Under the pieces are notes generated by a model. It saw only the letters and a list, made by a program, of their open reading frames with translations. It was not told the DNA's origin and made no database searches. A program made the translations under genes and the position numbers. From an uncultured Anaerolineaceae bacterium (GTDB taxonomy: Bacteria; Chloroflexota; Anaerolineae; Anaerolineales; E44-bin32), in NCBI GenBank assembly GCA_964492745.1, contig CAZBLT010000012.1, positions 5,162 to 69,161 of the forward strand: a stretch of DNA of 64,000 nt, written 5' to 3'. Below are positions 18,676 to 63,817 of the stretch, piece after piece (within the stretch, counting starts at the first letter, position 1; each line of letters starts with the position of its first letter).

Positions 18676-18685
18676 GATGGCGCTC

Positions 18686-19345
18686 CTATTCGTCCTGGCT
18701 GGGGACATGGCTGATACCCAGCCGGATGACCAGGTAGATATGCACGCCGACAAGGCCGATTAGGGCCGCGGGCAGCATCCAGATATGGGCGCTGAAGAAC
18801 CGCACCAGCGTGAGCGTAGTGAGGTCGGTGCCGCCGCGTAGAGCCCGGTTGATGAAAGGGCCAATGAAGGGAATCGTTTCGGTGATCGAGGTACCTACAG
18901 TGGTCGCCCAGTAGGCACGCTGGTTCCAGGGCAGCAGATAGCCGGTGAACCCCATGCCCAGGGTCCCCAGCAGCAGCAGCACGCCGGTGATCCAGGTGAC
19001 CTCGCGTGGGTATTTGTAGGCGCCGTAGAAGAAGGTGCGCAGCATATGCAGGAAGACGGTGATCACCATCAGAGTGGCACCCCAATGGTGGATGCCCCGG
19101 ATCAGCCATCCGAAGGCGACCTCATTCATGATGTAGTTGATGCTCTCGTAGGCCTGCTCGGGGTGGGGAACATAGTAGACGGTGAGGAATATTCCTGTCG
19201 CTCCCTGAACAAGCGCCAGGAAGAGAGTGGAGCTTCCCAGCGTGAAGAGCCAGTTGACCTTGGGGACTTTACGGTCCAGAATTACGTCGTAGATGGCCTT
19301 GAGCCCCAGGCGTTCGTCCAGCCAGGCGAACCATCGAGCAGCCAC
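18686..19345 (-). CDS. qcrB: Cytochrome b (b6-type, N-terminal 4-helix half)
   Basis: IRGIHHWGATLMVITVFLHMLRTFFYGAYK and GYLLPWNQRAYWATTVG carry the heme-ligand histidines and match the cytochrome b6 pattern. GTG start with GGAGG upstream. Confidence 0.9.
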   Translation of the reverse strand: MAARWFAWLDERLGLKAIYDVILDRKVPKVNWLFTLGSSTLFLALVQGATGIFLTVYYVPHPEQAYESINYIMNEVAFGWLIRGIHHWGATLMVITVFLHMLRTFFYGAYKYPREVTWITGVLLLLGTLGMGFTGYLLPWNQRAYWATTVGTSITETIPFIGPFINRALRGGTDLTTLTLVRFFSAHIWMLPAALIGLVGVHIYLVIRLGISHVPSQDE

Positions 19346-19346
19346 G

Positions 19347-19847
19347 TCAGGCCTCCGTGAGGTGAATCATCAGCGTGCCATCCTCGACCTTGTATTCAAA
19401 GCGGTCTAGCGGCCGTGGTTGGGGACCGGAGATAATCGAGCCGTCCTTGGCGAAACGTCCGTCATGACAAGGACATTGGAAGATACCCATGTCCTCCTTC
19501 CAACTCACGCGGCAGCTGAGATGGGTGCAGATGTTGGAGAAGACATCCAGGGAGCCGTCCGATTTCTTGATGACATAGATGCCGTAACTCTGAGCGGTGC
19601 GTTCCCAGCCAACCTGTTTTGTGCGTGTGAAGGAGAACAGCTTGGGCTCCCCTGGCGTCAGGTCCTCAACCAGCCCCAGCGGCACCCATTCGTCCCGTGT
19701 GGCCCGGAAGGATTTAAGCCCCGGCGCCAGCCAGTAGCCGATGGCCGGGATGCCGATAAGCACCGAGATGATGCCGCCCAGGAACCCCACCATGCCTGCC
19801 ACGAAGCCACGCCGGCTGAGGCCATGATCGTGAGAGTCGCCGGCCAT
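19347..19847 (-). CDS. qcrA: Rieske 2Fe-2S subunit of the bc-type complex
   Basis: Tat-like SRRGFVAGMVGFLGG. Rieske boxes CTHLSCRV and CPCHDGRF. ATG at 19847 with GGAGG upstream. Confidence 0.9.
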   Translation of the reverse strand: MAGDSHDHGLSRRGFVAGMVGFLGGIISVLIGIPAIGYWLAPGLKSFRATRDEWVPLGLVEDLTPGEPKLFSFTRTKQVGWERTAQSYGIYVIKKSDGSLDVFSNICTHLSCRVSWKEDMGIFQCPCHDGRFAKDGSIISGPQPRPLDRFEYKVEDGTLMIHLTEA

Positions 19848-20043
19848 GTACAACCTCCAGGATGCGCGAGGGGGCGACTCACGCCGCCCCCCCACCAAGG
19901 ACATCGCTGATGCTGCCTATTCTACCGCATGCTGAAGCGAGGCAAGAAGTGATGAATAGCATACAGCCGCCCAGCCAGAGGATAGGAAATCTGGCTCCAG
20001 AAACATGGATAGGCGTCGCTGGTGATATGGCCCAGCAAACCGC

Positions 20044-20079: not shown

Positions 20080-20481
20080 ATGGGAGGCAATATGGCCCTC
20101 AGTCGACGTGTGAGCCTTGGGGCGGCGCTGCGCTACAAGGGCAAGGAGGGCATGCTCAACTGGCTCTTGCATCGCATCTCCGGCCTGGGCATCCTACTCT
20201 TCGCCGGAACGCATGTCGTCGTCTCGTTCTTTGGCCAGCAGTTCGGCTCGGATGTGGCCTTTGCCATCAATACCATCTACGAGTCATGGTCGTTCCAGAT
20301 ATTCGTCTATTTTTGCGTGCTTTTCCACGCCCTGAACGGGTCGCGGCTGGCCGTGATGGACCTGTTCCCGGCGCTCATCCGCTTTGAGCGCGAGCTGGTC
20401 TGGCTGCAGTGGATCCTCTTCTTTCCAGCCTACGGCTTGCCGGTCTACTTCATGGTGCAGAACACCCTGGCCGGGGTGTGA
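20080..20481 (+). CDS. sdhC: Succinate dehydrogenase cytochrome b subunit
   Basis: YKGKEGMLNWLLHRISGLGILLFAGTHV is the typical SdhC start. Three predicted TM helices. First gene of sdhCDAB. Confidence 0.8.
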   Translation: MGGNMALSRRVSLGAALRYKGKEGMLNWLLHRISGLGILLFAGTHVVVSFFGQQFGSDVAFAINTIYESWSFQIFVYFCVLFHALNGSRLAVMDLFPALIRFERELVWLQWILFFPAYGLPVYFMVQNTLAGV

Positions 20482-20501
20482 GACGGGAGGGGAGGTTGCT
20501 A

Positions 20502-20924
20502 ATGCGATCACCAAGGCCAGTGCGCTCCGCAGGTGCCTTTGAATACGGCATGTGGCTCTTCACCCGCATCTCAGGGCTAGTATTGATGATCTTCGGTGCT
20601 ATAAGCATGGGGATGGCATTCTCGTTGGGCGGGAGGCGTTACCTAGACATGCCTTCCTTCCTGCGCTGGAGCTTCTTCCCCAACCCTAACCACGTGGTCA
20701 ACAGTGATATCCCGGATGTAAGCCTGGGCTGGTCGAACGCCTTTTGGCAAATCTACAGCATGGTGATGATCTTCTTGGCCGCCGTGCACGCAGTGAACGG
20801 GCTGCGCAGGGTGCTCGAGGACTACATCCAAAACTCATTGTTGATAGCCGTGTTACGCTTCCTGCTGCTCGTGATACTCGTGGGGGCCTTAATCGTCGCC
20901 ATCTATGTCATCCTGGCTTCATAA
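20502..20924 (+). CDS. sdhD: Succinate dehydrogenase hydrophobic anchor subunit
   Basis: Start at MRSPRPVRSAGAFEYGMWLFTRISG (ATG 20502, GGAGG upstream). Small three-TM protein between sdhC and sdhA. The longer track ORF overlaps sdhC. Confidence 0.7.
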   Translation: MRSPRPVRSAGAFEYGMWLFTRISGLVLMIFGAISMGMAFSLGGRRYLDMPSFLRWSFFPNPNHVVNSDIPDVSLGWSNAFWQIYSMVMIFLAAVHAVNGLRRVLEDYIQNSLLIAVLRFLLLVILVGALIVAIYVILAS

Positions 20925-20957
20925 ATCCGCCGGGCACTGTACGGGAGAGATCTATCC

Positions 20958-22745
20958 ATGCAGCATGAATATGAAGTCGTGATCGTGGGCGGGGGCGGGG
21001 CCGGGCTGATGGCCGCCATCTATGCCTCAAAGGGTGCCAAGACGGCGGTGCTGAGCAAGCTCTACCCGGTTCGCTCTCACACCGGGACGGCACAGGGCGG
21101 CGTGGGGGCCGCCTTGGGCAGCGAAGAGGATGACCGCCCCGAATGGCATACCTTCGATACCGTAAAGGGCAGCGACTACCTGGGCGACCAGGACGCCATC
21201 GAGTTTATGTGTAAGCAGGCCGTCGACACGGTCTACGAATTGGAGCACATGGGGCTGCCCTTCAACCGCACGCCGGAAGGTCGCATCGCTCAGCGTCCCT
21301 TCGGCGGCCATACTAACAACGAGACTGGCAAGCCCGTGCGCCGGGCGGCCTACGCCGCAGACCGCACAGGACACATGATCCTGCAGACTCTTTATCAGCA
21401 GTGCATCAAGAACAATGTCACCTTCTTCGATGAGTTCCAGGTGCTCGACTTGCTGGTGCGGGATGGCGTGGCCTGTGGGGTGGTGGCGGTCGAACTGGCG
21501 ACCGGCGAGTTGCACACCTTCCATGCCAAAGCGGTGATCTTCACCACCGGCGGTTGGGGCCGGGTTTGGGAGATCACATCCAATGCCCATTCCTACACCG
21601 GCGACGGCGTGGCGGTGGCGATGCGCCGTGGCATCCCGGCGGAGGATATGGAGTTCTTCCAATTCCATCCCACCGGTATCTACCGCATGGGCATCTTGAT
21701 TACAGAGGGGGTGCGTGGTGAGGGTGGCGTGCTCATCAACGATGAGGGCGAGCGCTTCATGGAGCGTTATGCCCCTACCGTGAAAGACCTGGCCTCACGC
21801 GATGTAGTGAGCCGGGCGATGTACCTGGAAATGCGCGAGGGGCGCGGTATCGGCGGGCAACGCTATCTTTACCTGGATGTGCGCCCCGAGACAGTCAACA
21901 AGTACGCCCAGATCGATGGACGCACCTTCCCGGATGGCAGCCCGTATCGTGTGACCGCCGCCGATATCCTCGCCAAGCTGCCGGACATCATCGATTTCTG
22001 CCGCACCTATATGGACGTTGATCCGGTCATGCAACCCATGCCTGTGCAGCCCACCGCCCACTACGCCATGGGTGGCGTTCCTACCGATATGCATGGCCAT
22101 GTGGTGATCGATGAGGAAAACAAGATCATGCCCGGGCTGTATGCAGCCGGCGAGGTGGCCTGCGTCTCGGTCCACGGCGCGAACCGCCTGGGGACCAACT
22201 CGCTCCTGGACATCGTCGTCTTTGGGAAGGAAGCGGGCATCCGCGCCGCAGAATACGCCCAAGGGGTCGATTTCACACCCCTGCCGGAGGATCCTCAGGC
22301 CTACGTGCGCGAGCAGCTAGAGGCGCTGCGCAGCGCGGATGGCACCGAGGTGGCCGCCGATATCCGCCGCGAGATGCAAGTGGCCATGTTCGACCACGTC
22401 AGCGTCTTCCGCACCGAGGAGGGCATGCAAGAGGCGCTCGAGAAGATCCGCGAACTGAAGGACCGCTTCCGGCATGTCCGGGCCGGCGACCCCGGGCACA
22501 TCTTCAACACCGATGTGCTAGAAGCCTGGGAACTTGGTTGCATGCTGGATATCGCGGAGGTCACGGCGGTGTCGGCGCTAGCGCGGAAGGAAAGCCGCGG
22601 GGCACATGCCCGCGAGGACTTCCCCAAACGGGATGACAAACGCTGGCTGAAGCACACGCTGGCCTATCTCGACTGGAAAGGCGTCTCACTGCGCTATAAG
22701 CCCGTGACGATCACGCGTTTCAAGCCTAAGGAGCGCACGTACTAG
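20958..22745 (+). CDS. sdhA: Succinate dehydrogenase flavoprotein subunit
   Basis: VVIVGGGGAGLMAA, RSHTGTAQGG (FAD-linking His) and HPTG..GILITEGVRGEGG are canonical SdhA/FrdA motifs. Confidence 0.97.
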   Translation: MQHEYEVVIVGGGGAGLMAAIYASKGAKTAVLSKLYPVRSHTGTAQGGVGAALGSEEDDRPEWHTFDTVKGSDYLGDQDAIEFMCKQAVDTVYELEHMGLPFNRTPEGRIAQRPFGGHTNNETGKPVRRAAYAADRTGHMILQTLYQQCIKNNVTFFDEFQVLDLLVRDGVACGVVAVELATGELHTFHAKAVIFTTGGWGRVWEITSNAHSYTGDGVAVAMRRGIPAEDMEFFQFHPTGIYRMGILITEGVRGEGGVLINDEGERFMERYAPTVKDLASRDVVSRAMYLEMREGRGIGGQRYLYLDVRPETVNKYAQIDGRTFPDGSPYRVTAADILAKLPDIIDFCRTYMDVDPVMQPMPVQPTAHYAMGGVPTDMHGHVVIDEENKIMPGLYAAGEVACVSVHGANRLGTNSLLDIVVFGKEAGIRAAEYAQGVDFTPLPEDPQAYVREQLEALRSADGTEVAADIRREMQVAMFDHVSVFRTEEGMQEALEKIRELKDRFRHVRAGDPGHIFNTDVLEAWELGCMLDIAEVTAVSALARKESRGAHAREDFPKRDDKRWLKHTLAYLDWKGVSLRYKPVTITRFKPKERTY

Positions 22746-22755
22746 GAGAGGTGTC

Positions 22756-23457
22756 ATGGAGGTTACGCTTCGCATCCTGCGCTACAACCCGGAGACCGAC
22801 AAGAAGCCTCACTATGAGACCTATACGGTGGAAGCCGAGCCCAATGACCAGGTGCTCGATCTGCTCAACCGCGTGAAGTGGTATCAGGACGGCACGCTCT
22901 CCTACCGGCGCTCGTGCGCGCATGGCATTTGCGGCTCGGACGCCATGCGCATCAACGGAGTGAACCGGCTGGCGTGCAAGGTGCTTGTGAAGGATGTGGG
23001 CACCAAGATCACCGTGGAGCCGATCCTCGGCCTGCCGGTGATCAAGGATCTGATCGTGGACATGGAGCCCTTCTTCGAGCACTACCGGACGGTGATGCCC
23101 TACCTGGTGAACGACGACCCCCCGCCGCAGCGGGAGCGTCTCCAGACGCCCGAGCAGCGCGCCCGCTTCGACGACACCACCAAGTGCATCCTCTGCGCCG
23201 CCTGCACCACCTCCTGCCCGTCTTTCTGGGCCAGCGGAGAATACGTGGGTCCGGCGGCGATCGTGCAGGCCCATCGCTTCATCTTCGACAGCCGAGACCA
23301 GGCAGGCCCGGAACGTTTAAAGATCCTGAACCATCGCATGGGCATCTGGCGCTGCCATGATATCTACAACTGCACGGATGCCTGCCCGCGTGAGATCGAG
23401 GTCACCAAGGCGGTGGGCGAGGTCAAGATGGCCATCGCCACCGGGAAAATCGAGTAG
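22756..23457 (+). CDS. sdhB: Succinate dehydrogenase iron-sulfur subunit
   Basis: Three Cys clusters: SCAHGICGSDAMRING, CILCAACTTSCP and CHDIYNCTDACP. Confidence 0.97.
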   Translation: MEVTLRILRYNPETDKKPHYETYTVEAEPNDQVLDLLNRVKWYQDGTLSYRRSCAHGICGSDAMRINGVNRLACKVLVKDVGTKITVEPILGLPVIKDLIVDMEPFFEHYRTVMPYLVNDDPPPQRERLQTPEQRARFDDTTKCILCAACTTSCPSFWASGEYVGPAAIVQAHRFIFDSRDQAGPERLKILNHRMGIWRCHDIYNCTDACPREIEVTKAVGEVKMAIATGKIE

Positions 23458-52530: not shown

Positions 52531-53400
52531 TTAGGAGGGGTTTGTGTTCCCTTGCCGGCGGGGCGGGGTCCAAGCCAAGCCACGTCGGGGCGCAAACAGG
52601 AAGACCAGCAGGAAGATGCCTGTTTCGACCAAGACGATGGCCGGGCCAGAGGGCATGTTGAGGTAATAGGAGAGCAGCAGGCCCAGGAAGGAGGAAGTCG
52701 CGCCGATAAAGGCCGAGAGCACCATCATGGAGGGCAGGCGCCGGACAAGGAGGTACGCCGACGAGGCCGGTGTTACAAGCATAGCCAGCACTAAGGCCAC
52801 CCCAACGGCTTGGATCGAGATCACGATCACGAGGGCGAGCAACACCAGCAGCAGGTTTTCGAGCAGCCGCACAGGCAGGCGCAGGGTCTGGGCCAGCACA
52901 GGGTCGAACGACAGGACCAGGAATTCCTTGTAGAAGGCGAAGATTGTGAGGAGGACGAGCCCTCCCAGGCCTGCCATGAGCCATAGGTCGGCCGGCCCAA
53001 CGCCCAGTAAATTGCCGAAGAGGATATGAGCCAAGTCAACGGCGTAGCTGCCTTCGAGCGAAATCAGGGCCACGCCCAGGGCGAAGGAGCCGGCGAAGAC
53101 GATGCCCACGGCGGCATCCTCACGTATGCGGGCGCGGCGACTGATGGCACCAATGGCCAGCGCCGCAAGCACTCCCACGATGAGCGCACCTGCGGGAAGA
53201 GGCCAGCCAAGCAGGAAGGCAAGAACCACCCCCGGAAGAATGATGTGCGCCAGAGCGTCTCCGAAGAAAGCCAGGCCGCGGAGCACGACATAGGTGCCGA
53301 GCACAGGACAGACGGTTCCCATAAGCAACGCGGCCAGCAAACCCCGTTGCATGAAGGCATAGCCAAAGGGATCGGTCAGCCACGTTACCAACTCAGACAT
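52531..53400 (-). CDS. znuB: Metal (Zn/Mn) ABC transporter permease, ABC-3 family
   Basis: Start at MSELVTWLTDPFGYAFMQRGLLAALLMG. The ATG overlaps the znuC stop (ATGTCTGA). Typical ABC-3 pattern. Confidence 0.9.
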   Translation of the reverse strand: MSELVTWLTDPFGYAFMQRGLLAALLMGTVCPVLGTYVVLRGLAFFGDALAHIILPGVVLAFLLGWPLPAGALIVGVLAALAIGAISRRARIREDAAVGIVFAGSFALGVALISLEGSYAVDLAHILFGNLLGVGPADLWLMAGLGGLVLLTIFAFYKEFLVLSFDPVLAQTLRLPVRLLENLLLVLLALVIVISIQAVGVALVLAMLVTPASSAYLLVRRLPSMMVLSAFIGATSSFLGLLLSYYLNMPSGPAIVLVETGIFLLVFLFAPRRGLAWTPPRRQGNTNPS

Positions 53401-54220
53401 CCCGGGGCTGCTCCTCGCCGTCACAGCAGGTATCAGTCACCAGGAGGGCGCCCTCCTCATGGGAAAGTCTGTGGACTTGCGGTCCGTAGGCTTGCAGGAG
53501 GGTTTCCGAGGCCAGGACCGCGTCCGGCGAGCCGTAGGCGATGACGCGGCGGTTGAGCAGCAAAATGCGATCGAAGTGTTCTGCTGCCAGGCCAAGATCA
53601 TGGGTGGCGATGAGAATGGTGACTCCCAGGGCGCGCAGTTCTTGAAGAATCTGGAGAATGGCCGCCAAACTAGGTGCGTCCAGGCCGGTGAGCGGCTCAT
53701 CCAGCAGAATCACCTCCGCTTCCTGAGCCAGTGCCTGCGCTAGGAAGACGCGTTGCTGTTGCCCGCCGGAGAGCTCCCCGATCTGGCGTCCGGCTGCGTG
53801 GCGCATGCCCACACGGTCTAGGGCCTCACGCACGAATTGCCAATCCTTGGAGGTGGGCCAGCGGAAGAGACCGATCTTGCGGATGCGGCCCATCATCACC
53901 ACTTCATCGACGCTTACCGGAAAGTTCCAGTCGACCTGGCTGCGCTGCGGCACATAGGCGATGCACACATGGCCGCGAGGCCCATGGCCGAAGATCTCCA
54001 CCCGGCCTTCGGTCGGCTCAAGCGTGCCGGCGATGACCTGTATAAGAGTCGTTTTTCCCGCGCCGTTTGGCCCCACGATGGCCACCTGCTCGCCCGGCGG
54101 GATCTCGAGATGGATATCCTCCAAGGCGATCGTCCCCTCATGCCTTACCCAGACGTGCTCTAGCCTGATCGGCGGAGCGCTCACGTCGTGCTCATGGAAG
54201 CGTGCAGTCAGGCTGGCCAT
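53393..54220 (-). CDS. znuC: Metal ABC transporter ATP-binding protein
   Basis: Walker A GPNGAGKTT, signature LSGGQQQR, Walker B ILLDEP. Confidence 0.92.
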   Translation of the reverse strand: MASLTARFHEHDVSAPPIRLEHVWVRHEGTIALEDIHLEIPPGEQVAIVGPNGAGKTTLIQVIAGTLEPTEGRVEIFGHGPRGHVCIAYVPQRSQVDWNFPVSVDEVVMMGRIRKIGLFRWPTSKDWQFVREALDRVGMRHAAGRQIGELSGGQQQRVFLAQALAQEAEVILLDEPLTGLDAPSLAAILQILQELRALGVTILIATHDLGLAAEHFDRILLLNRRVIAYGSPDAVLASETLLQAYGPQVHRLSHEEGALLVTDTCCDGEEQPRDV

Positions 54221-54238
54221 AGATGGTCTCCGATGGGC

Positions 54239-55291
54239 TCAGGGGGCAAGGGCGCGGACGATGGCCTCGACATTGTACTGCATCATGGCAATGTAGCTGG
54301 GCGCCTCGCCCGATGGCGGAGTGAGCGTGCCAATGTAAAGCGGCACGACAGGCACGCCTACGTCCTGCGCCAGCCGGGCGGCAAGCCGCGGGTTGAGACT
54401 GCGCTCTACGAAAATGGCCGCCACGTCACGCTCACGGATGACTTCCTGGAGGATTCCGAGCGCCTGCGAGGAGGGCTCGGCGGCGGTGCTGTAGGCCGGG
54501 ATGACGGCGCCAACCATTTCAAAACCGTAGCGGTGTGCGAAATATCCCAGGGCGAGGTGATCAGCCACAAGCATGCGGCGCGCGGGAGGGATCTCTTCCA
54601 CTCGTTTTAGGATCCACTCATGCAGCTCCCGGAGCGCATTTTGGTATTCCTGAGCGCGCTGCCTGTAGGTTTCGGCGCGGACGGGATCCCGGCGGCTGAG
54701 TGCCTGCTGAGCGTTCTCGGTCCAGTGAATGACTTGGAGCGGATCGAGCCAGACGTGGGGGTCGAGATCAGCGTCGAGCAATTCATCCGGCGGGTGCTGT
54801 TCATCCGTTTGCATGGGCCAATCACGCGCATTGACTCCTTCCGACAGGGAGACGACAGGGATACCATCCAGTGAGAGTGTGGAGAGGGTGGACTCCAGCG
54901 GGGCCTCCAGGCCTAGACCGTTGATGAGGATCAGGTCGGCCTGGGTCAAGGCTTGCAGGTCTCCTGGCGTAGGTTGGTACGCGTGGGGATCGGCGCCCAA
55001 GGGTATCAACGGAGTCAATTCTATGTCCGAGCCGCCCACGTTGCGCACGACATCGGCGACGACATTGGTTGTGGCGACGACCTTCAGGCGACCGTTTGCG
55101 GGCAGCGGAGCGGGCTGGAGGGCATCGATAGGTGTGAGAAAGGCCTGCTCGTGTCCTCGAGATTTCGGGGCATTTGCACAGCCCCCCAACAATATAAAGG
55201 CGATCATCCATGCAAGGAAGATCGGCCTCGCCATGGCATGCAGGGGGCTGCCTGACTGGCGGATGACGGAGCTGCGCGAGGCTGCGGTCAT
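54239..55291 (-). CDS. znuA: Metal ABC transporter substrate-binding lipoprotein (ZnuA/TroA-like)
   Basis: Lipobox FILLGGC, DPHAYQPTP, DPHVWLDP. The ATG at 55291 overlaps the zur stop as ATGA; the alternative ATG is at 55234. The upstream part of the 460-aa track ORF is rejected because it overlaps zur. Confidence 0.85.
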   Translation of the reverse strand: MTAASRSSVIRQSGSPLHAMARPIFLAWMIAFILLGGCANAPKSRGHEQAFLTPIDALQPAPLPANGRLKVVATTNVVADVVRNVGGSDIELTPLIPLGADPHAYQPTPGDLQALTQADLILINGLGLEAPLESTLSTLSLDGIPVVSLSEGVNARDWPMQTDEQHPPDELLDADLDPHVWLDPLQVIHWTENAQQALSRRDPVRAETYRQRAQEYQNALRELHEWILKRVEEIPPARRMLVADHLALGYFAHRYGFEMVGAVIPAYSTAAEPSSQALGILQEVIRERDVAAIFVERSLNPRLAARLAQDVGVPVVPLYIGTLTPPSGEAPSYIAMMQYNVEAIVRALAP

Positions 55292-55749
55292 GATGCGCCC
55301 TCCTGGCAATTCGGGCAGAGCCCCTGGAATTCGAGCATATGCTCCTGGATGAGGAAGCCGGTCTCCCGCTGAATGCGCGCAACGAGGTCCTTCAGGTTCT
55401 CTGTGCCGGGGAACTCGACAACATACTGGCAGTTGCGGCATATGAGATGGTGTCCATGGGCGAGCAGTGTGCGCGCATAGCCGTGGCAGCCATCGGAGAG
55501 GTGCACGCGCCGCACGAACCCCAGCCGGGCGAAGAGATCGAGGGTTCGATAGACCGTCACCAGGCTCAGCGAAGGGCACAAGGGCCTGGCGTTTGCTAGC
55601 AGGTCTTCGGGCCGCTGCCAATCCTGGCTCTGAGCCAGGGCTTTGATGAGAGCCCGGCGTGTGCGGGTGAGGCGGGAGCCTTGCGCTCGTAGCCGCTGCA
55701 GTAACGCCTGCTCCCAGGCGGCGGCATTATTATTGATAATTTCTTTCAT
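55288..55749 (-). CDS. zur: Fur-family metalloregulator, probably Zur
   Basis: The wHTH includes VTVYRTLDLF. Metal sites HGHHLICRNC and CPNC are present. First gene of zur-znuA-znuC-znuB. Confidence 0.9.
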   Translation of the reverse strand: MKEIINNNAAAWEQALLQRLRAQGSRLTRTRRALIKALAQSQDWQRPEDLLANARPLCPSLSLVTVYRTLDLFARLGFVRRVHLSDGCHGYARTLLAHGHHLICRNCQYVVEFPGTENLKDLVARIQRETGFLIQEHMLEFQGLCPNCQEGAS

Positions 55750-56045: not shown

Positions 56046-56074
56046 TTGACAGTTGCCCCCTACCGGAGTACCAT
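56046..56074 (+). promoter_or_regulatory. Sigma-70-type promoter of the lacI-ABC operon
   Basis: TTGACA (56046-56051), 17-nt spacer, TACCAT (56069-56074). Confidence 0.55.
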
Positions 56075-56081
56075 GGATTTA

Positions 56082-56105
56082 CCTTTTGGAACCGGTTCCA
56101 AAAGG
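56082..56105. promoter_or_regulatory. Perfect 24-bp palindrome, LacI-family operator
   Basis: CCTTTTGGAACCGGTTCCAAAAGG has a TGGAAC-CG-GTTCCA core, central CG, as in LacI/GalR-type operators. It starts 8 nt after the -10 and ends 18 nt before the LacI-family ATG. Confidence 0.7.
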
Positions 56106-56123
56106 CCACAAAGGGTCGCCGGC

Positions 56124-57152
56124 ATGCCTACTACCATCCGTGATGTAGCGAGGGTCGCTGGCGTGGGATTGGGCACTGTCTCCCGCGTGATCAACAACAG
56201 CCCCCAGGTGAGCGAGTCCACGCGCCGGCGTGTCTTGGATGCTATCGAGGCCCTCGATTTCCATCCCAGCCCGATCGCCCGGCGTCTTTCCCTCGGCAAG
56301 ACCCTCACCATCGCGGCCGTCGCCCCTTTCTTCACCCGCCCCGCAACGGTCGAGCGCCTGCGGGGCGTCGAAATAGCCATCGCCGGCACCGAATATGATC
56401 TGATCGTCTTCAACGTCGAGTCGCCGGAACGGCGGTATGCCACCCTGCGCGAGGTGACCTGCAGCCAGCGTGTCGATGGTGCGCTGGTGATTTCTTTGCC
56501 GCCCAGTGAGCAAGAATTGGAGATTCTCCAGAGTTCTTCCGTGCCCGTCGTCCTGATCGATATCAATAGCCCCGAAGTGAACGGGTTTTCAAGGGTGGTG
56601 ATCGACGATGTCGCGGGAGGGCGCCTGGCCACAGAACACCTGATCGGGCTGGGCCATCGGCGCATTGGATACATCAGCGATTCTTTCGATGAGCCTTCCC
56701 TCTATACGGCCAGCCGCATGCGCTATCTGGGCTATCGAGAAGCATTGCGAAAAGCAGGCATCGTTCCCGCAGAGGCTTGGCATCGGCATGGAGCGCATGG
56801 TCGCTACGAGGCTGAGCAACTCGCGCTGCATATACTCAATCTGGGGGATCCACCTACCGCCATCTTTGCCGCCAGTGATACACAGGCCATAGGGGTGATG
56901 GAAGCTGCCCGCAAGATGGGCATGAATGTTCCGAGGGATCTCTCGGTGGTTGGCTACGATGATATCGAACTCGCGGAGCATATGGGTCTCACGACAATCA
57001 GACAGCCGCTTTTTGAATCCGGCGCCGAGGGCGTGCGCTTGCTCCTACAGGTAATTGCCGACCAGGCAGCTGCGCCGGAGACGATCCGGCTTCCAACGGA
57101 GCTGGTCAAGCGACGCACCACAGCACGCCCGCCAAACGGAGGTTCCCTTTGA
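56124..57152 (+). CDS. LacI-family transcriptional regulator
   Basis: Start at MPTTIRDVARVAGVGLGTVSRVINN (HTH_LacI), followed by a periplasmic-binding-protein-like sugar-binding core. Confidence 0.9.
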   Translation: MPTTIRDVARVAGVGLGTVSRVINNSPQVSESTRRRVLDAIEALDFHPSPIARRLSLGKTLTIAAVAPFFTRPATVERLRGVEIAIAGTEYDLIVFNVESPERRYATLREVTCSQRVDGALVISLPPSEQELEILQSSSVPVVLIDINSPEVNGFSRVVIDDVAGGRLATEHLIGLGHRRIGYISDSFDEPSLYTASRMRYLGYREALRKAGIVPAEAWHRHGAHGRYEAEQLALHILNLGDPPTAIFAASDTQAIGVMEAARKMGMNVPRDLSVVGYDDIELAEHMGLTTIRQPLFESGAEGVRLLLQVIADQAAAPETIRLPTELVKRRTTARPPNGGSL

Positions 57153-57347: not shown

Positions 57348-59867
57348 ATGATTAAGAAATCCTGGCTGATTGGATTGCTCCTGGTCGTGGCTATGCTGGC
57401 CTCTGCCTGTGGTGGGGCCACGCCTACGCCGGGCGAGGAACCTACCAAGCCCCCCGCGCCGGAAACCGAAGCCCCCATGGTGCCGGCCGAGATCGACTGC
57501 AGTGGCATCTCGCCTGGGGATCAACTCACGGTCATGTATCAATGGTCGGGGGCCGAGGAGGAGAAGATCAACGCCATCTTCAAGCCGTTCGTCGACGCTT
57601 GTGGCGTGGAGATCGTAGCCGAATCGACCCGCGATGCCGCCGTCCTGGATGCCAAGGTGAAGAGCACGCCTCCGGATCTGGTCTTCTGGCCGACTACAGC
57701 ACCCCTGACGCTGTATGGCGATATGCTCAAGGACCTTGGACAGCTAGGGGCCAGCGCGAGCAACTACGCTGATTTCTGGCTTGACCTCGGATCGACGGGT
57801 GGAAAGTGGCTGGCGGTGCCGGTGAAGGCCGATATCAAGTCCATCATCTGGTACAGCCCGGTGCAGTTCGAAGCTTTCGGCTATCAGGTGCCGGCGACCT
57901 TCGATGAGCTCGATGCGCTGGTTGAGCAGATGGTGGCCGACGGGAATGTGCCCTGGAGCATGGGCATGGAGAGCGGCCCGGCGACAGGCTGGACGGGGTC
58001 GGACTTCATCCAGGACCTGCTCTTGACCTTCGAGGGGCCGGAGTACGTGATGGGGCTGATCAATGGCGAGATTCCCTATGACGACGAAGGTGTGGTGAAG
58101 GCCTATGAGCAGTATGTGAAGTGGGCCTCGGACGGGAAGTACACCGTCGGCGGAGCGACGGGGACGGTGAACACCGGGTTCCTGGATGCGATCTATAAGG
58201 TGTTCTCGGATCCGCCGGAGGCGATGATGGTGAAGCAGTCCGGGTTTGCGGGTGGAGAGATCGTCAAGCAATATCCGGATCTGGAATACGGCGTGGACTT
58301 TGACTTCTTTGGGTTCCCTGGGGCGCAAGGCCTGCAGGGTGGCGCCGATTTCCTGATGGCCTTCGGCGATTCGCCCGCCGCTACTGCGATGGTTAAGTAC
58401 CTGACGAGCGAGGCTGGAGGCGCGGCGTGGGCCGAGGCAGGTTTCGACCTATCTCCGAACAAGGCTGCCCTCGGTCACTATCCCGACGAGCAGCTGGCGA
58501 AGAAGGCCGAGATCTTGGCCTCCGCCACCGGCTTCACGCCGGACCTGGGTGACACGATCCCGGCGCCGTTCGGCGAGGCGGAGTGGAAGGCCATCGTCGA
58601 TGCCGTGCAGGGTGCGGACATCCCCACCGTGCTGGCAGCGGCGGCCGCCGCGCAGCGCGAGGGGCTAGCTATGGCGCCCAAGATCGATTGCAAGGGAGCC
58701 TTGGCCGGCGATCAGCTGACGGTCGTTTACCAGTGGTCAGGGGCCGAGGAGGAGAAGATCAACGCCATCTTCAAGCCCTTGGTCGACGCCTGTGGCATCG
58801 AAATCGTGGCGGAATCGACCCGCGATGCCGCCGTGCTGGATACCAAGATGAAGAGCACGCCGCCAGACTTGATATTCTGGCCCACCACCGCGCCCTTGAC
58901 ACTCTACCCCGACCAGTTGGTAGCGCTTGATCAAGTGGGCGGCGTGGCCGCCAACTACCCCGCCTTCTGGCTTGACCTCGGATCGACGGGTGGAAAGTGG
59001 CTGGCGGTGCCGGTGAAGGCCGATATCAAGTCCATCATCTGGTACAGCCCGGTGCAGTTCGAAGCTTTCGGCTATCAGGTGCCGGCGACCTTCGATGAGC
59101 TCGATGCGCTGGTTGAGCAGATGGTGGCCGACGGGAATGTGCCCTGGAGCATGGGCATGGAGAGCGGCCCGGCGACAGGCTGGACGGGGTCGGACTTCAT
59201 CCAGGACCTGCTCTTGACCTTCGAGGGGCCGGAGTACGTGATGGGGCTGATCAATGGCGAGATTCCCTATGACGACGAAGGTGTGGTGAAGGCCTATGAG
59301 CAGTATGTGAAGTGGGCCTCGGACGGGAAGTACACCGTCGGCGGAGCGACGGGGACGGTGAACACCGGGTTCCTGGATGCGATCTATAAGGTGTTCTCGG
59401 ATCCGCCGGAGGCGATGATGGTGAAGCAGTCCGGGTTTGCGGGTGGAGAGATCGTCAAGCAATATCCGGATCTGGAATACGGCGTGGACTTTGACTTCTT
59501 TGGGTTCCCTGGGGCGCAAGGCCTGCAGGGTGGCGCCGATTTCCTGATGGCCTTCGGCGATTCGCCCGCCGCTACTGCGATGGTTAAGTACCTGACGAGC
59601 GAGGCTGGAGGCGCGGCGTGGGCCGAGGCAGGTTTCGACCTATCTCCGAACAAGGCTGCCCTCGGTCACTATCCCGACGAGCAGCTGGCGAAGAAGGCCG
59701 AGATCTTGGCCTCCGCCACCGGCTTCACGCCGGACCTGGGTGACACGATCCCGGCGCCGTTCGGCGAGGCGGAGTGGAAGGCCATCGTCGATGCCGTGCA
59801 GGGTGCGGACATCCCCACCGTGCTGGCAGCGGCGGCTAGTGCGCAGAGCGAAGCTCTTGGCCGATAA
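57348..59867 (+). CDS. ABC transporter solute-binding lipoprotein with two tandem family-1 SBP modules in one ORF
   Basis: Lipobox LLVVAMLASAC. Module 1 is about residues 49-445 and module 2 about residues 446-839, with a period of 1191 nt. GGAG-rich RBS AAAGGAGTGAGGAG upstream. Confidence 0.85.
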   Translation: MIKKSWLIGLLLVVAMLASACGGATPTPGEEPTKPPAPETEAPMVPAEIDCSGISPGDQLTVMYQWSGAEEEKINAIFKPFVDACGVEIVAESTRDAAVLDAKVKSTPPDLVFWPTTAPLTLYGDMLKDLGQLGASASNYADFWLDLGSTGGKWLAVPVKADIKSIIWYSPVQFEAFGYQVPATFDELDALVEQMVADGNVPWSMGMESGPATGWTGSDFIQDLLLTFEGPEYVMGLINGEIPYDDEGVVKAYEQYVKWASDGKYTVGGATGTVNTGFLDAIYKVFSDPPEAMMVKQSGFAGGEIVKQYPDLEYGVDFDFFGFPGAQGLQGGADFLMAFGDSPAATAMVKYLTSEAGGAAWAEAGFDLSPNKAALGHYPDEQLAKKAEILASATGFTPDLGDTIPAPFGEAEWKAIVDAVQGADIPTVLAAAAAAQREGLAMAPKIDCKGALAGDQLTVVYQWSGAEEEKINAIFKPLVDACGIEIVAESTRDAAVLDTKMKSTPPDLIFWPTTAPLTLYPDQLVALDQVGGVAANYPAFWLDLGSTGGKWLAVPVKADIKSIIWYSPVQFEAFGYQVPATFDELDALVEQMVADGNVPWSMGMESGPATGWTGSDFIQDLLLTFEGPEYVMGLINGEIPYDDEGVVKAYEQYVKWASDGKYTVGGATGTVNTGFLDAIYKVFSDPPEAMMVKQSGFAGGEIVKQYPDLEYGVDFDFFGFPGAQGLQGGADFLMAFGDSPAATAMVKYLTSEAGGAAWAEAGFDLSPNKAALGHYPDEQLAKKAEILASATGFTPDLGDTIPAPFGEAEWKAIVDAVQGADIPTVLAAAASAQSEALGR
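57774..58645 (+). repeat. Direct repeat copy 1 (872 nt, identical to 58965-59836)
   Basis: Line-by-line comparison found no mismatch at an offset of 1191 nt. Antisense track ORFs 58193..58462 and 59384..59653 translate identically. Confidence 0.95.
58965..59836 (+). repeat. Direct repeat copy 2 (872 nt, identical to 57774-58645)
   Basis: As for copy 1. Identity ends at 58646 (C) versus 59837 (T). Confidence 0.95.
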
Positions 59868-59946: not shown

Positions 59947-60861
59947 ATGGCTGCCCCTAAGATCATGCAGCAGGGGCGCGTCGTGCCCTGGCTCTACCTG
60001 CTTCCAGCGCTGATTGTTATCGCCGTCTTCATCCTTTATCCCACGGCTAATACCTTCCAACTGAGTTTGCGCGACCGCACCGGAAGCCAACCTGCCAATG
60101 TGGAATGCATCGAGGGCGAGCCCTGCTGGGGCCCGTTCGAGAACTATCGCTACACACTCACATCCCCGGAAATGCTGACCGCCTTGCGCAACAACGCATT
60201 GTGGATCTTGGTCATGGTACCGATCACCATCGGCATAGGACTGGTGATCGCTGTGCTCGCCGACCGGGTGCGCTATGAAAGCCTGGTGAAATCCATCATC
60301 TTCATGCCCATGGCCATTTCGTTCATAGGGGCGGGCGTCATATGGCGCTTCATGTATCACATCGAAACAGGGAGCCTCGAGCAGATCGGCGTACTCAATG
60401 CCATCCTGGTCGGGCTCGGACTGGATCCCGTGCCGTGGCTGAGCACGGCCTGGGTGAACAACTTCGCACTCATGGCCGTGGGAGTTTGGCTGTGGGCCGG
60501 CTTCTGCATGACGATTCTATCGGCGGCGCTCAAAGGTCTTCCCTCGGAAGTCATCGAGGCTGCTCGGGTGGACGGGGCCACAGAGTGGCAACTCTTCTGG
60601 CAGGTGATGATGCCGATGATCTTGCCTACCGTCACGGTTGTGCTGACGACGATGATCATCATCATCCTGAAGATCTTCGATATTGTCTTCGTGATGACGG
60701 GCGGCTTGTTTGGAACGGAAGTGATCGCAAACCGCATGTTCAAACTCATCGTCACCCATACTGGCAGGTCGACGGCCATTGCCATGTTGCTGCTGGTGCT
60801 GACCATCCCGGTGATGGTGTTCAATGTGCGGCGGTTCCGAGAGCAGGAGGCCATGCGATGA
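59947..60861 (+). CDS. Carbohydrate ABC transporter permease (MalF/UgpA-like)
   Basis: Six TM helices, with the EAA-loop region EAARVDGATEWQLFWQVMMP. Confidence 0.9.
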   Translation: MAAPKIMQQGRVVPWLYLLPALIVIAVFILYPTANTFQLSLRDRTGSQPANVECIEGEPCWGPFENYRYTLTSPEMLTALRNNALWILVMVPITIGIGLVIAVLADRVRYESLVKSIIFMPMAISFIGAGVIWRFMYHIETGSLEQIGVLNAILVGLGLDPVPWLSTAWVNNFALMAVGVWLWAGFCMTILSAALKGLPSEVIEAARVDGATEWQLFWQVMMPMILPTVTVVLTTMIIIILKIFDIVFVMTGGLFGTEVIANRMFKLIVTHTGRSTAIAMLLLVLTIPVMVFNVRRFREQEAMR

Positions 60862-62078
60862 GACCCTTCGCACGCCTCAACCGCCTGTTTTCGCGTTTGC
60901 CTGTCCATCTCTCGCTTGGGGTACTCGTGCTGCTGTGGATTGTCCCCACTCTGGGGGTCTTCGTGACCTCCTTCCGGTCCCGAGAGGCAGTGCGCACTAC
61001 GGGTTGGTGGACGGTCTTTCTTCCACAGGAGGTGGAGGGGAAGGTCGAATATGCCACGTATTGCGAAGGCTGCCATGGGGCGGACGGCGCAGGCGTACCG
61101 GCCGCCGATCTGAGCGATCCGGCGGTGGTGAAGAAGTTCCCGCGTTCCAACCGTTTATTGGCAGTATTGCGCCGTCCTCTGGAGAGTGGAGAGTTGCATG
61201 TGCAAGAGCCAGGGCTGCCTGAGGATCCAAACAAGGCGCTGGAGACTCTGGCGCCCATCTTGGGCTATATGCAAGTGCTCTCTGGCATCGAGGAGAGAAC
61301 TGCTGGCCGTCTGACACTGCGGAACTATGCCGATGCTCTGGTCGGCTACAAAGGCACGCAGGATTACCTAACCGATTGTGAGCAGGGAGTGGCCAGTGCG
61401 CTGGCGAAGTTCAATTGCGATGCTAGCGACCTGCTACGGCCCGAAGGTATGGGCCGGGCCTTCCTAAACACGGTGGCTGTGGCGATTCCATCGGCGCTGC
61501 TTCCGATTCTAATCGCCGGCTTCGGTGCCTATGCCTTCGCCTGGATGGATTTCCCAGCGCGCCAATGGCTCTTTGCCATCCTTGTAGGCCTGCAAATCAT
61601 CCCGCTGCAATTGGCATTGGTGCCCATCGCACGCATGTACACTTCCGTGGGCCTGCAATCCACATTCTTGGGAATCTGGTTGTTCCATACAGGGTTTGGC
61701 CTTCCCTATGCCATCTATCTGATGCGCAACTTCCTTGGCGGGCTCCCGCGCGAGATCTTTGAATCGGTCTATATCGATGGAGCCAACCATTGGACAGCGT
61801 TCTGGCGATTGGCGATTCCACTTTCCGTCCCGGCGATCGCCTCCCTAGGAATCTTTCAATTCTTGTGGATTTGGAACGACTTCCTGGTGGCGAAGATCTT
61901 CCTATCCAGCCACCCTGTGCTGACGGTTCAGATCACCAATCTCATTGATCCGCGAGGGGCCAACTGGCATATTTTGACGGGCGCAGCTTTCTTGTCGTTC
62001 ATTGTTCCCATGGCAGTCTTCTTCGGCCTGCAGCGCTTCTTTGTGCGCGGTTTGCTGGCCGGATCCGTCAAGGGCTAG
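60858..62078 (+). CDS. Carbohydrate ABC transporter permease (MalG-like) with a cytochrome c-like insertion in the first external loop
   Basis: The ATG overlaps the upstream stop (ATGA at 60858-60861). The EAA loop is ESVYIDGANHWTAFWRLAIP. The loop after TM1 is about 150 aa and contains YCEGCHGADGAG (CXXCH at 61062-61076). The upstream part of the 578-aa track ORF is out-of-frame overlap with the previous permease. Confidence 0.85.
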   Translation: MRPFARLNRLFSRLPVHLSLGVLVLLWIVPTLGVFVTSFRSREAVRTTGWWTVFLPQEVEGKVEYATYCEGCHGADGAGVPAADLSDPAVVKKFPRSNRLLAVLRRPLESGELHVQEPGLPEDPNKALETLAPILGYMQVLSGIEERTAGRLTLRNYADALVGYKGTQDYLTDCEQGVASALAKFNCDASDLLRPEGMGRAFLNTVAVAIPSALLPILIAGFGAYAFAWMDFPARQWLFAILVGLQIIPLQLALVPIARMYTSVGLQSTFLGIWLFHTGFGLPYAIYLMRNFLGGLPREIFESVYIDGANHWTAFWRLAIPLSVPAIASLGIFQFLWIWNDFLVAKIFLSSHPVLTVQITNLIDPRGANWHILTGAAFLSFIVPMAVFFGLQRFFVRGLLAGSVKG

Positions 62079-62156: not shown

Positions 62157-63326
62157 CTAGGGCACCGGCGTGACGGTCGCCAGGTAGTCCCCCTGCAACC
62201 AGCCCTCGAGGACCTCCCCGAAGCCGTTGATAAAGCGCACGTACCACCAGACAGAGCCATCGATCTTGGTGGGTCCTTTGAGCACCACGACCCGGTCACC
62301 CTCCTCCAGGAACCCTACGTGGGCGCCGAGGGGGTCGGGGGTGACACGCAGCACGGCGCCGATGCCGCCGGTGCGCAGCACCTCGGCTGGCTGCGGAGTG
62401 GCCGTGGGGGTTTGGGTCGGGGTGGACGTGATCGTGGGCGTGTGAGTGGGCGTTGCCGTGGGGGTCATGGTAGCCGTGTGTGTGGGCGTGGATGTAGCCG
62501 TGGGTGTAGGCGTGGCGGTGGGCGGGGGTGTAGGTGTGGGCAATGAAGCCAGCACAGAGGCCCCCAGTCCTGCAGCGCTGAGCACCGCCACGACGCCCAT
62601 TAACGCCACGGCGGCGGCTAGCGAGCCAGTGGCACCGGTGAGAGGGCGGAATCCCAGGCCGGCGAGCACACCCACACCCACGACTAGTGCCCAGGCCAGG
62701 TGCAATCCGAAGGTGAGCAGGGCACCTTCCCAGAGCTCGGGCTCGCCAACCAACAGACCGATGGCGGCCGCGCCCAAGGGCAATGCCAGTTCGTATGCCA
62801 CGGCCGCGCTGGGCAGCGGCGCTAGCACTTCATCGCGCACCAGCTTGTAGGCCAGGAACCCCGCCCCCACCATCACCATGCCGAAATCGAGCCAATTGAG
62901 CTTGGTATGGCCCAGGGCCAGCAGGTAGGGCGCATCCCCGGCCCCCAGCCCGCCGCTCAGGCCGGCGGTCACGCCCAGGAGCAGCATGGCGGCCAGGAAA
63001 GCGGCCGTCATGCGGCCGAAGAAGCGCGCCGAGCCGGAGACGGCCGAGAGCGCCAGGCCCATCAGCGGACCCATGCGCGGCGCCAGCAATGCGCCGGCGA
63101 CCAGCAAAGCCCGCTGGTCAAAGCGGAATCCTAGTCCGATCAATGCGCCGGCTAGGAGCGCGTAGAAGAACAACTCCACGCCGGGGGTTACGATCTTGGC
63201 CAGCTCTTCGAGAAAGGCCTCGCGTTCATCGGCCCGCAGCTGGGTGAGCATGCGCAGGGCACGCCGACGGCGGGCTCTGGAGGCCTGACCGAGGGGATCG
63301 AAGGGTTCGCTGGATTGCGCGCTCAT
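62157..63326 (-). CDS. DUF389-like membrane protein fused through a Pro/Thr linker to a C-terminal SH3b-like domain
   Basis: Start at MSAQSSEP (the ATG overlaps the upstream stop as ATGA at 63323-63326). ELFFYALLAGALIGLGFRFDQRALLVAGALLAPRMGPLMG is DUF389-like. Then the linker PTPTPPPTATPTPTATSTPTHT..., then the SH3b-like GAVLRVTPDPLGAHVGFLEEGDRVVVL...WWYV. Confidence 0.7.
   Translation of the reverse strand: MSAQSSEPFDPLGQASRARRRRALRMLTQLRADEREAFLEELAKIVTPGVELFFYALLAGALIGLGFRFDQRALLVAGALLAPRMGPLMGLALSAVSGSARFFGRMTAAFLAAMLLLGVTAGLSGGLGAGDAPYLLALGHTKLNWLDFGMVMVGAGFLAYKLVRDEVLAPLPSAAVAYELALPLGAAAIGLLVGEPELWEGALLTFGLHLAWALVVGVGVLAGLGFRPLTGATGSLAAAVALMGVVAVLSAAGLGASVLASLPTPTPPPTATPTPTATSTPTHTATMTPTATPTHTPTITSTPTQTPTATPQPAEVLRTGGIGAVLRVTPDPLGAHVGFLEEGDRVVVLKGPTKIDGSVWWYVRFINGFGEVLEGWLQGDYLATVTPVP
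62396..62543 (-). repeat. Low-complexity GTGGG(C/T)GT-type repeats encoding the Pro/Thr linker
   Basis: The plus strand shows reiterated GTGGGCGTG/GTAGGTGTG units. They are in frame within the CDS and translate to (T/P)-rich sequence. Confidence 0.8.
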
Positions 63327-63793
63327 CGTCGTAGAGTGGCCACCAATCGGAGCGGATTTTCGAGCAAGTCTAGCGCGGCGTGGATGTTTTCGACAACGAG
63401 ATCGGCCGCCTGCAAGGTCTCTACCGCCAGTCCCTCCTTCGAGAGCAGGGCGATGCCGATCGCCGCCTCCCGGAGCATGCCGGCGTCGTTGGCGCCCTGT
63501 CCGATGGCGACAACCTGGTCGGCGCCCAGGGCACGGACCTGCGCGGCCTTGGCCTCGGCTTCCCCGCCGCGCGAAATGAGGGTAGCCTGGATGCCCAGCC
63601 GGGTCTCGATCGCCTGGCGGGTGCGATGCGTGTCGGCAGTCAGCAGGTGGAGCTCCAACCGGTCGCGCAATGCTGCAAGCGCCCTGGCCACCCCGTCGAT
63701 CAGGCGTCCGTCCAGAGCGATGGTGCCATGCACATCGCAGACCAAGTGCCGCAACTGAATGGTGCCCCGGCCGGGTACGTTGAGCTCGATCAA
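63323..63793 (-). CDS. HAD-superfamily protein resembling the soluble P-type ATPase family (COG4087)
   Basis: (M)IELNVPGRGTIQLRHLVCDVHGTIALDG (motif I), LLTADT, K in AEAKAAQV, GQGANDAGML (motif IV). I prefer the TTG start at 63793, with GGAGGG 6 nt upstream. The track ORF extends to 63934. Confidence 0.7.
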   Translation of the reverse strand: MIELNVPGRGTIQLRHLVCDVHGTIALDGRLIDGVARALAALRDRLELHLLTADTHRTRQAIETRLGIQATLISRGGEAEAKAAQVRALGADQVVAIGQGANDAGMLREAAIGIALLSKEGLAVETLQAADLVVENIHAALDLLENPLRLVATLRR

Positions 63794-63817
63794 GGCTGCC
63801 CTCCACAGGTTGCCGGC

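Follow-up and report, generated by a model that had tools for sequence, protein, structure and literature searches.

The stretch of DNA considered here, referred to as the window, comprises 64,000 nucleotides from an uncultured Anaerolineaceae bacterium (assembly GCA_964492745.1, contig CAZBLT010000012.1, positions 5,162 to 69,161 of the forward strand), and its gene of interest encodes a sugar permease at 60858..62078 on the plus strand. The 406-amino-acid (aa) translation is a second membrane subunit, of the MalG/SugB/AglG type, of a CUT1 sugar ATP-binding cassette (ABC) importer, and its first extracytoplasmic loop carries what is very probably a cytochrome c module. The ATG start shares an ATGA with the TGA stop of the upstream permease gene and has AGGAGG 7 nucleotides (nt) before it; the two permease genes are therefore taken to be translationally coupled. 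A longer open reading frame (ORF) from 60342 is an artifact, as homologs begin with MRPF or MKPF.

The C-terminal 210 residues of the permease form an ordinary MalG-type core. PF00528 (BPD_transp_1) matches residues 225-398 above its cut-off (E 1.7e-11; 44.6 bits versus 26.4), the closest solved permease is the mycobacterial trehalose permease SugB (7cad_B, E 8e-22), and Escherichia coli MalG (2r6g_G, E 3e-15) matches as well; both alignments start at residue ~198, run to the C terminus, and cover the EAA loop. The NCBIfam models GlcU, MalG, and UgpE match far below their equivalog cut-offs, and the permease is therefore not an equivalog of any named transporter. The EAA loop (ESVYIDGANHWTAFWRLAIP, residues 302-321; 61761..61820, plus strand) shows the EAA...G.........P pattern between TM4 and TM5, is the cytoplasmic ATPase contact, aligns with the EAA region of SugB, and fixes the topology: because it must face the ATPase, counting the helices back places the loop between transmembrane helices 1 and 2 (TM1 and TM2) outside, as in MalG and SugB. 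The predicted topology is thus an N terminus inside, TM1, a loop on the outer face, and TM2. TM1 (residues 17-37; 60906..60968, plus strand) would serve as a signal-anchor ahead of the external loop; it is a helix at residues 16-37 in the AlphaFold model, and W27, P30, and G33 are invariant among close homologs. The spacing from TM1 to TM2 is ~160 residues, compared to ~30 in SugB. All of this agrees with the original prediction, made from the DNA letters, which had proposed a MalG-type permease at 60858-62078 with TM1 at residues 17-37 and an oversized first extracytoplasmic loop lying outside; its CXXCH at 61062-61076 and its loop stretches EYATYCEGCHGADGAGVPAADLSDPAVV and LETLAPILGYMQVLSG are likewise all found in the translation.

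The cytochrome c module occupies residues ~55-143 of this loop (~90 residues; 61020..61286, plus strand), inserted between the motifs GWWT.F and FTL.NY. It contains the heme c attachment motif C69-E-G-C72-H73 (61062..61076, plus strand), in which C69 and C72 would hold the heme and H73 would be the proximal ligand. Only 2 of the 61 non-overlapping window ORFs of at least 100 aa carry CXXCH, this permease and a bona fide diheme cytochrome c, and the motif is invariant across the homologs examined; chance occurrence was rejected on these grounds. A whole-protein search returned at least 120 homolog clusters of 403-408 aa and 69-100% identity, all from Chloroflexota/Anaerolineae assemblies. A survey of CXXCH conservation, which the original prediction had proposed, located the motif at the same place in 120 of 120 close homologs, in all 85 module-bearing GTDB species representatives described below, and in every divergent family member covering the site, and homologs from a search with the loop all keep Y.C..CHG..G. 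Among the 120 close homologs, C69, C72, H73, G77, and R96 are conserved at 100%, Y65 at 99%, G74 and H114 at 98%, and Y68 at 97%, with the positions neighboring these motif residues varying freely.

Profile comparisons place the module among class I cytochromes c. PF13442 (Cytochrome_CBB3) matches 59 of 65 aligned family members at E<=0.01 (best 9.8e-8), and five of the six rows lacking a match are truncated gene calls without the module. A profile of the N-terminal region, searched against 1.84 billion representative proteins, recovered family members first and, after them, long class I cytochromes c of several domains, whose PF13442 matches reach E 1e-141. A loop-only profile, built from an alignment of diverse species representatives (alignment A5) and compared to the PDB, matched the C-terminal heme domain of CcoP from cbb3 oxidase (8snh_G, E 5.8e-7; 3mk7_C, E 8.7e-7) over profile positions 4-81 of 92, about 78 residues that include the distal-ligand loop. 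An origin of the module from the cytochrome c of the window's own bc-type complex was considered and is unsupported, the similarity being confined to 23 residues around the motif.

The predicted fold points the same way. An AlphaFold model of the isolated loop has a mean predicted local distance difference test (pLDDT) score of 87, rising to 95-97 across residues ~59-139, and is all-helical, with the helix order of a small cytochrome c. A Foldseek comparison of this model to the PDB gave 18 matches, all with weak E values, 17 of which are c-type cytochromes (KustC0563, c6, OmcF, cL, PsbV [6j3y_V], and TtX183A among them); target-normalized TM-scores to small cytochromes are 0.53-0.58 and, with a best E of 0.33, are to be read qualitatively. 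No PAS-type structure is among the Foldseek matches, and the all-helical model sets the module apart from the PAS-like c-heme sensors. We therefore regard it as very likely that the first extracytoplasmic loop of this second permease subunit, in a CUT1 importer of the trehalose/maltose type, holds a complete mono-heme class I cytochrome c domain. The family-wide PF13442 matches, the CcoP profile match, and the conservation bear out the class I c-type interpretation given to this loop originally, and neither of the outcomes named at that time as damaging to it was encountered (no cytochrome c profile match together with an unconserved CXXCH, or a cytoplasmic loop).

The module differs from its closest relatives at the distal heme ligand. 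His114 (61197..61199, plus strand) is predicted to be this sixth ligand from its conservation and from alignment with the axial Met of CcoP. It is present in 118 of 120 close homologs and 85 of 85 species representatives, the most divergent subgroup has it as well, and it is invariant in alignment A5. In the HMMER alignment, the NGQMP of CcoP stands opposite NGQPH in the family, putting the His one residue after the axial Met, and a Chloroflexota-type cytochrome repeat aligns with the same distal loop at an offset of two. A search for an invariant Met as sixth ligand in the 85 species representatives found none, in keeping with the earlier remark that a canonical distal Met context was not obvious. 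Two candidates had been put forward at that time; His114 (98-100% conserved, at Met+1) is retained, and Met138 (73% conserved, with Leu and Ile as alternatives) is rejected. The GQMP of homolog P0014 was also rejected as a canonical Met motif, being too near the C-terminal helix of a protein that looks frameshifted. Bis-His ligation, giving a low-spin and probably low-potential heme, is on this evidence the more probable arrangement, and cytochrome c550 (PsbV) provides a bis-His precedent.

To follow the history of the module, we turn to its distribution. Three scans of GTDB species representatives yielded 97 Anaerolineae loci with a usable permease ORF. The module is present in 85 of these, with 95-112 aa between GWW and NY and CXXCH in all, and is missing from the remaining 12, which have 20-41 aa in the same loop. 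Two subtypes occur, a "105-type" seen in the window and in Levilinea and a compact "97-type"; the cultured Levilinea saccharolytica KIBI-1 has an intact 404-aa ortholog (locus L009, 1969-3183). Module-less loci keep the same order of genes (LacI regulator, binding protein, MalF-type permease, permease, and the trehalose synthase TreS), their binding proteins are 57-61% identical to that of the window, and in module-less relatives GWWT.F is joined directly to FTL.NY. In a neighbor-joining tree of the core region, the module-less loci are nested within the module-bearing clade, and under Fitch parsimony, with two to four changes, 92 of 100 bootstrap replicates have "module present" as the root state. 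Thus, the module was probably ancestral to these loci and then lost at least twice from otherwise identical operons. Among the relatives scanned outside Anaerolineae, none has CXXCH at this loop position, which restricts the module to that class.

Public gene calls for L001 (1383-2609), P0013, and P0015-P0018 start at a Met inside the loop, giving products of 268-269 aa and dropping TM1 and the whole module. A split or truncated gene, as such short homologs might suggest, was rejected, since the starts of these genes are miscalled and L001 has a full-length ORF at 1383-2609. One contig assigned to "Syntrophothermus sp." of the Bacillota (JBLNAU010000061.1; L026/L080) bears an operon of the usual Anaerolineae cytochrome-permease kind, probably as a result of mis-binning.

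The loop contains a second element, at residues ~156-197 (61323..61448, plus strand), with Cys174 (61377) and Cys187 (61416), both 100% conserved among close homologs and probably joined in a disulfide. The element is absent from actinobacterial-type relatives and is kept in the module-less Anaerolineae relatives (P0156, P0184, and L044-L063); because the latter retain it, it is separate from the module and older. The original prediction of a second small insert with two cysteines was thus correct in its positions, and the insert proves to be an independent element, found also where the module is not. The site immediately after GWWT.F has itself received other sequences. It has no insert in cyanobacteria, actinomycetes, spirochetes, and Halanaerobiales, a non-heme insert of ~80 aa in Paenibacillus, Cohnella, and Caldilineae, one of ~109 aa in Rhizobium and Vibrio, and an acidic one of ~150 aa in P0232. 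In the AglG-like permeases (L149-L199, such as L164 from Paenibacillus, L195 from Vibrio, and L199 from Rhizobium, together with P0232), this site is an insertion hot spot with at least three unrelated non-heme inserts.

The operon around the permease is that of a sugar importer. A LacI-family regulator (56046..57152, plus strand), a neighbor in 70 of 97 loci, lies upstream of the transporter genes. It is followed by an 839-aa solute-binding lipoprotein (57348..59867, plus strand) that is a tandem fusion of two solute-binding protein (SBP) units, has weak SBP Pfam matches, and weakly resembles AcbH (3oo7_A, E 9e-12); an SBP gene is present in 92 of 97 loci. The MalF/SugA-type first permease subunit (59947..60861, plus strand; 304 aa; PF00528 E 1.1e-15) adjoins the permease in 96 of 97 loci. 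The commonest downstream gene encodes TreS (E 9e-214 to 5h2t_A), found in 72 of 97 loci in a count limited by contig ends; the window has no TreS gene, and a DUF389 gene comes next instead. The TreS neighbor, together with SugB as the closest solved permease, points to an importer of the trehalose/maltose type. No ATPase gene is present in the operon, and shared ATPases of the MsiK/MsmX type are usual in the CUT1 family.

The binding protein merits separate mention. Its gene is an in-frame repeat with a period of 1191 nt; the two halves share 94% identity in an alignment of 382 aa, whose last ~260 aa show no difference, a pattern that could come from duplication in the very recent past, from gene conversion, or from assembly. 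An 847-aa equivalent of the fused protein is found in L010 (6463-9006).

Further genes flank the operon. In the DUF389 membrane protein (62157-63806, minus strand), a long, low-complexity linker rich in Thr and Pro (TPTPPPTATPTPTATSTPTH...) leads to a globular C-terminal part, and in the short contigs L004 and L005 the permease is likewise followed by a DUF389 gene. A Zn/Mn-type ABC uptake cluster (52531-55749, minus strand), with a ZnuA-like binding protein, an ATPase, an ABC-3 permease, and a FUR-family regulator, lies on the upstream side of the sugar operon. The same arrangement is repeated at L002 (1299-4445); local synteny is therefore conserved across genera.

Other genes of the window bear on whether the host makes heme c. 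The window has a Rieske/cytochrome b operon whose third protein fuses a cytochrome b C-terminal domain to a diheme cytochrome c (PF13442 E 7.5e-13), together with an adjoining succinate dehydrogenase operon (17485-19904, minus strand, and 20080-23457, plus strand). From this bc-type complex it follows that the organism makes c-type cytochromes and that heme c maturation must exist. This complex, with its cytochrome c fused to a protein resembling subunit IV, occurs in a lineage long seen as fermentative. The Leptolinea type strain is reported to have only Complex I and bd oxidase, an anecdotal hint regarding module loss and heme c capacity. The genome of Levilinea is reported to encode alternative complex III (ACIII), NirS, NrfA, and an A-type oxidase (PMC4653796), and an outer membrane is absent in Anaerolineae (PMC4653795).

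The explanation that we tentatively prefer, and would put somewhat short of probable as a whole, is that the cytochrome c domain in the loop has heme attached and makes transport redox gated. It builds on the sequence, its conservation and homology, the predicted fold, the phylogenetic distribution, and the operon context; from these we infer heme attachment, bis-His ligation, the position relative to the binding protein, and redox gating. The permease would be inserted in a Sec-dependent manner, after which the cytochrome c maturation system would attach one heme covalently to Cys69 and Cys72. His73 would act as the proximal ligand and His114 as the distal one, in place of an ancestral Met (NGQMP to NGQPH). 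By analogy with the MalF P2 loop, the module may sit on the outer face near the docking site of the binding protein, where its redox or ligation state could change the conformation of the loop and so modulate docking or gating. These filaments respire facultatively and have no outer membrane, and their uptake of alpha-glucosides might then depend on how reduced or oxidized the extracytoplasmic pool of electron carriers is. An accessory nature of the module is suggested by the 12 orthologous operons that lack it and are otherwise intact, and the unrelated inserts found at this loop position in other lineages favor a generic accessory role close to the surface where the binding protein docks. 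That an invariant His has taken the place of the distal Met speaks for selection acting on the properties of the heme. A heme-dependent accessory domain that modulates docking or gating through its redox or ligation state is a possibility that we advance with some doubt. The more specific notion of a built-in redox or gas sensor, in which the bis-His domain would switch trehalose/maltose uptake on or off according to the state of the carrier pool or oxygen, seems unlikely.

Several observations weigh against redox-gated transport by a heme-bearing loop. The window protein on its own falls below threshold for both cytochrome c families, with 17.9 bits for PF13442 (20.5 for the loop alone; threshold 27) and 15.9 bits for PF00034 (18.6 for the loop alone; threshold 21.3), in each case over residues 60-85. 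The comparison with these two profiles that the original prediction had recommended therefore gives a divided answer, negative for the window protein alone and positive for 59 of 65 family members with PF13442 and for the loop profile with CcoP. No Foldseek match reaches E<0.001. The tree is distance based, and 8 of the 100 replicates do not place a "present" state at its root. Neighborhood clustering of 27 loci found no conserved redox partner, oxidoreductase, sensor output, or maturation gene beside the operon, and a scan for the WWD motif of CcsA/ResC across the DNA of the loci retrieved found none near it. The unrelated non-heme inserts at the same site suggest a generic, heme-independent role for insertions there. 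Finally, class I cytochromes fold around their heme, so that invariant ligands would be expected of a redox and of a structural role alike.

This last point leads to the alternative that survives best, although we hold it to be unlikely: the heme may be purely a folding cofactor of a domesticated cytochrome c fold that provides a rigid docking or spacer domain for the binding protein and has no redox function. Structural parallels exist in the MalF P2 loop and in the bis-His cytochrome c550 (PsbV) of photosystem II, the latter (6j3y_V) being among the fold matches of the module. Such a role would suit an operon without a conserved redox partner and a site that accepts unrelated non-heme inserts (~80 aa in Paenibacillus and Caldilineae, ~109 aa in Rhizobium and Vibrio, and ~150 aa in P0232), and folding alone would account for the conservation of the ligands. 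However, intact operons keep just 20-41 loop residues after module loss, and a docking domain is therefore not required, and the retention of the distal Met-to-His change in 85 of 85 loci suggests selection on properties of the heme beyond the fold.

An improbable alternative is that the permease serves as the anchor of a mono-heme electron carrier, with electrons passing between respiratory complexes, to a sugar oxidoreductase outside the cytoplasm, or to some external acceptor. The attraction of this idea is that a soluble cytochrome c is not retained without an outer membrane, which Anaerolineae do not have (PMC4653795), and the permease would therefore supply a membrane anchor. The bc-complex subunit in the window likewise has fused cytochrome c domains, the nearest relatives of the module are electron-transfer cytochromes (CcoP and the multi-domain PF13442 proteins), and X183 offers a precedent for cytochrome c domains on carbohydrate-active proteins (PMC10916295). 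Against this, a domain tethered at both ends within a loop is restricted in its mobility, and the predicted bis-His heme is ill suited to transfer from a bc complex or ACIII to an oxidase. Moreover, the module is bound to one sugar operon in ~85 species with no conserved oxidoreductase beside it, and TreS, the conserved partner, is a cytoplasmic enzyme.

That the loop holds no heme at all, CXXCH and the nearby Cys pair forming a thiol-disulfide or metal site in a cytochrome-like helical loop or else being a vestige of a heme site, is very unlikely: the local, sub-threshold Pfam match of the window protein, the weak Foldseek E values, and a second conserved Cys pair 100 residues downstream would fit, but homology to CcoP runs over ~78 residues including the distal-ligand loop, the CXXCH His, G74, G77, Y65, Y68, R96, and the distal His are conserved at 97-100% in the pattern of a heme pocket, the Cys pair belongs to a separate element found without the module, a vestigial site would not stay invariant in more than 200 sequences, and the host makes other c-type cytochromes.

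With redox-gated transport by a heme-bearing loop still the explanation we prefer, the wider interest of the locus is in a predicted heme-binding domain that the permease of a single sugar operon has kept, strictly conserved, in at least 85 Anaerolineae species. Members of this class grow as filaments that dominate in wastewater reactors, sediments, and soils and are hard to culture; after long being called strict fermenters, they are now known to have genes for respiration. Few membrane machines are better studied than ABC importers, and to our knowledge no ABC importer has a redox cofactor in a membrane subunit. In the literature searched, no ABC importer permease is described as having a cytochrome c domain, and the original prediction likewise knew of no characterized example. 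If heme is covalently bound, this would be the first ABC importer with heme on a membrane subunit. If that heme controls transport, a new regulatory principle would follow, one linking carbon import to redox state posttranslationally in an abundant and poorly understood class, and if its role is structural only, the locus would show clearly how a cytochrome fold can be taken up by a transporter as an accessory domain. These possibilities are testable in a cultured host, Levilinea saccharolytica KIBI-1, whose copy is intact, and nature provides controls in orthologous operons without the module and in operons where the insert at this site is an unrelated one. In public annotation the protein is a plain "ABC transporter permease," sometimes truncated, and it is consequently missed by censuses of annotated cytochromes that count CXXCH.

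Comparison to known systems places each part of the permease in a familiar setting and the combination outside of it. With the MalG/SugB/AglG subunits of solved importers (LpqY-SugABC, 7cad; MalFGK2, 2r6g), it shares the six-helix core from TM2, the EAA loop, and the C-terminal GSVKG, and with CUT1 importers generally it shares a binding protein and a MalF-type partner in the operon, with TreS adding a trehalose/maltose context. The difference is in the TM1-TM2 loop, which has ~30 residues in MalG and SugB and ~160 here, with a cytochrome c domain and a Cys-pair element; we know of no characterized MalG/SugB/AglG member with a cofactor-binding domain. A large folded domain in an extracytoplasmic loop of an importer, placed to contact the binding protein, is also found in the P2 loop of MalF (~180 aa, periplasmic). 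P2, however, belongs to MalF rather than to the MalG-type subunit, has a beta-rich, Ig-like fold, and is free of cofactor.

The module, for its part, resembles the C-terminal domain of CcoP (3mk7_C, 8snh_G; PF13442 type) in CXXCHG..G, in the predicted N- and C-terminal helices, in the spacing of the NGQ.. loop, and in its extracytoplasmic site. It departs from CcoP in having NGQPH where the latter has the axial Met of NGQMP, and in being embedded in the loop of a transporter instead of belonging to a respiratory subunit or to a carrier, soluble or anchored. Covalent heme c in an extracytoplasmic domain between two membrane helices is known from the c-heme sensor domains of the chemoreceptors DcrA of Desulfovibrio and GSU0582 and GSU0935 of Geobacter, for which sensing of redox state or small ligands has been proposed. 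Those domains have a PAS-like fold and chemoreceptor hosts, whereas the permease module has a predicted class I cytochrome c fold and a transporter host. The X183 domains (TtX183A, 8q1v; PMC10916295), one of which appeared in both our fold search and our sequence search, are likewise small, class I-like cytochromes c carried by extracellular carbohydrate-handling proteins, and they are stabilized by disulfides. They differ in being His/Met ligated and in belonging to secreted, non-transporter, multi-domain proteins with carbohydrate-binding modules in Gammaproteobacteria, whereas the module described here is built into the carbohydrate importer itself.

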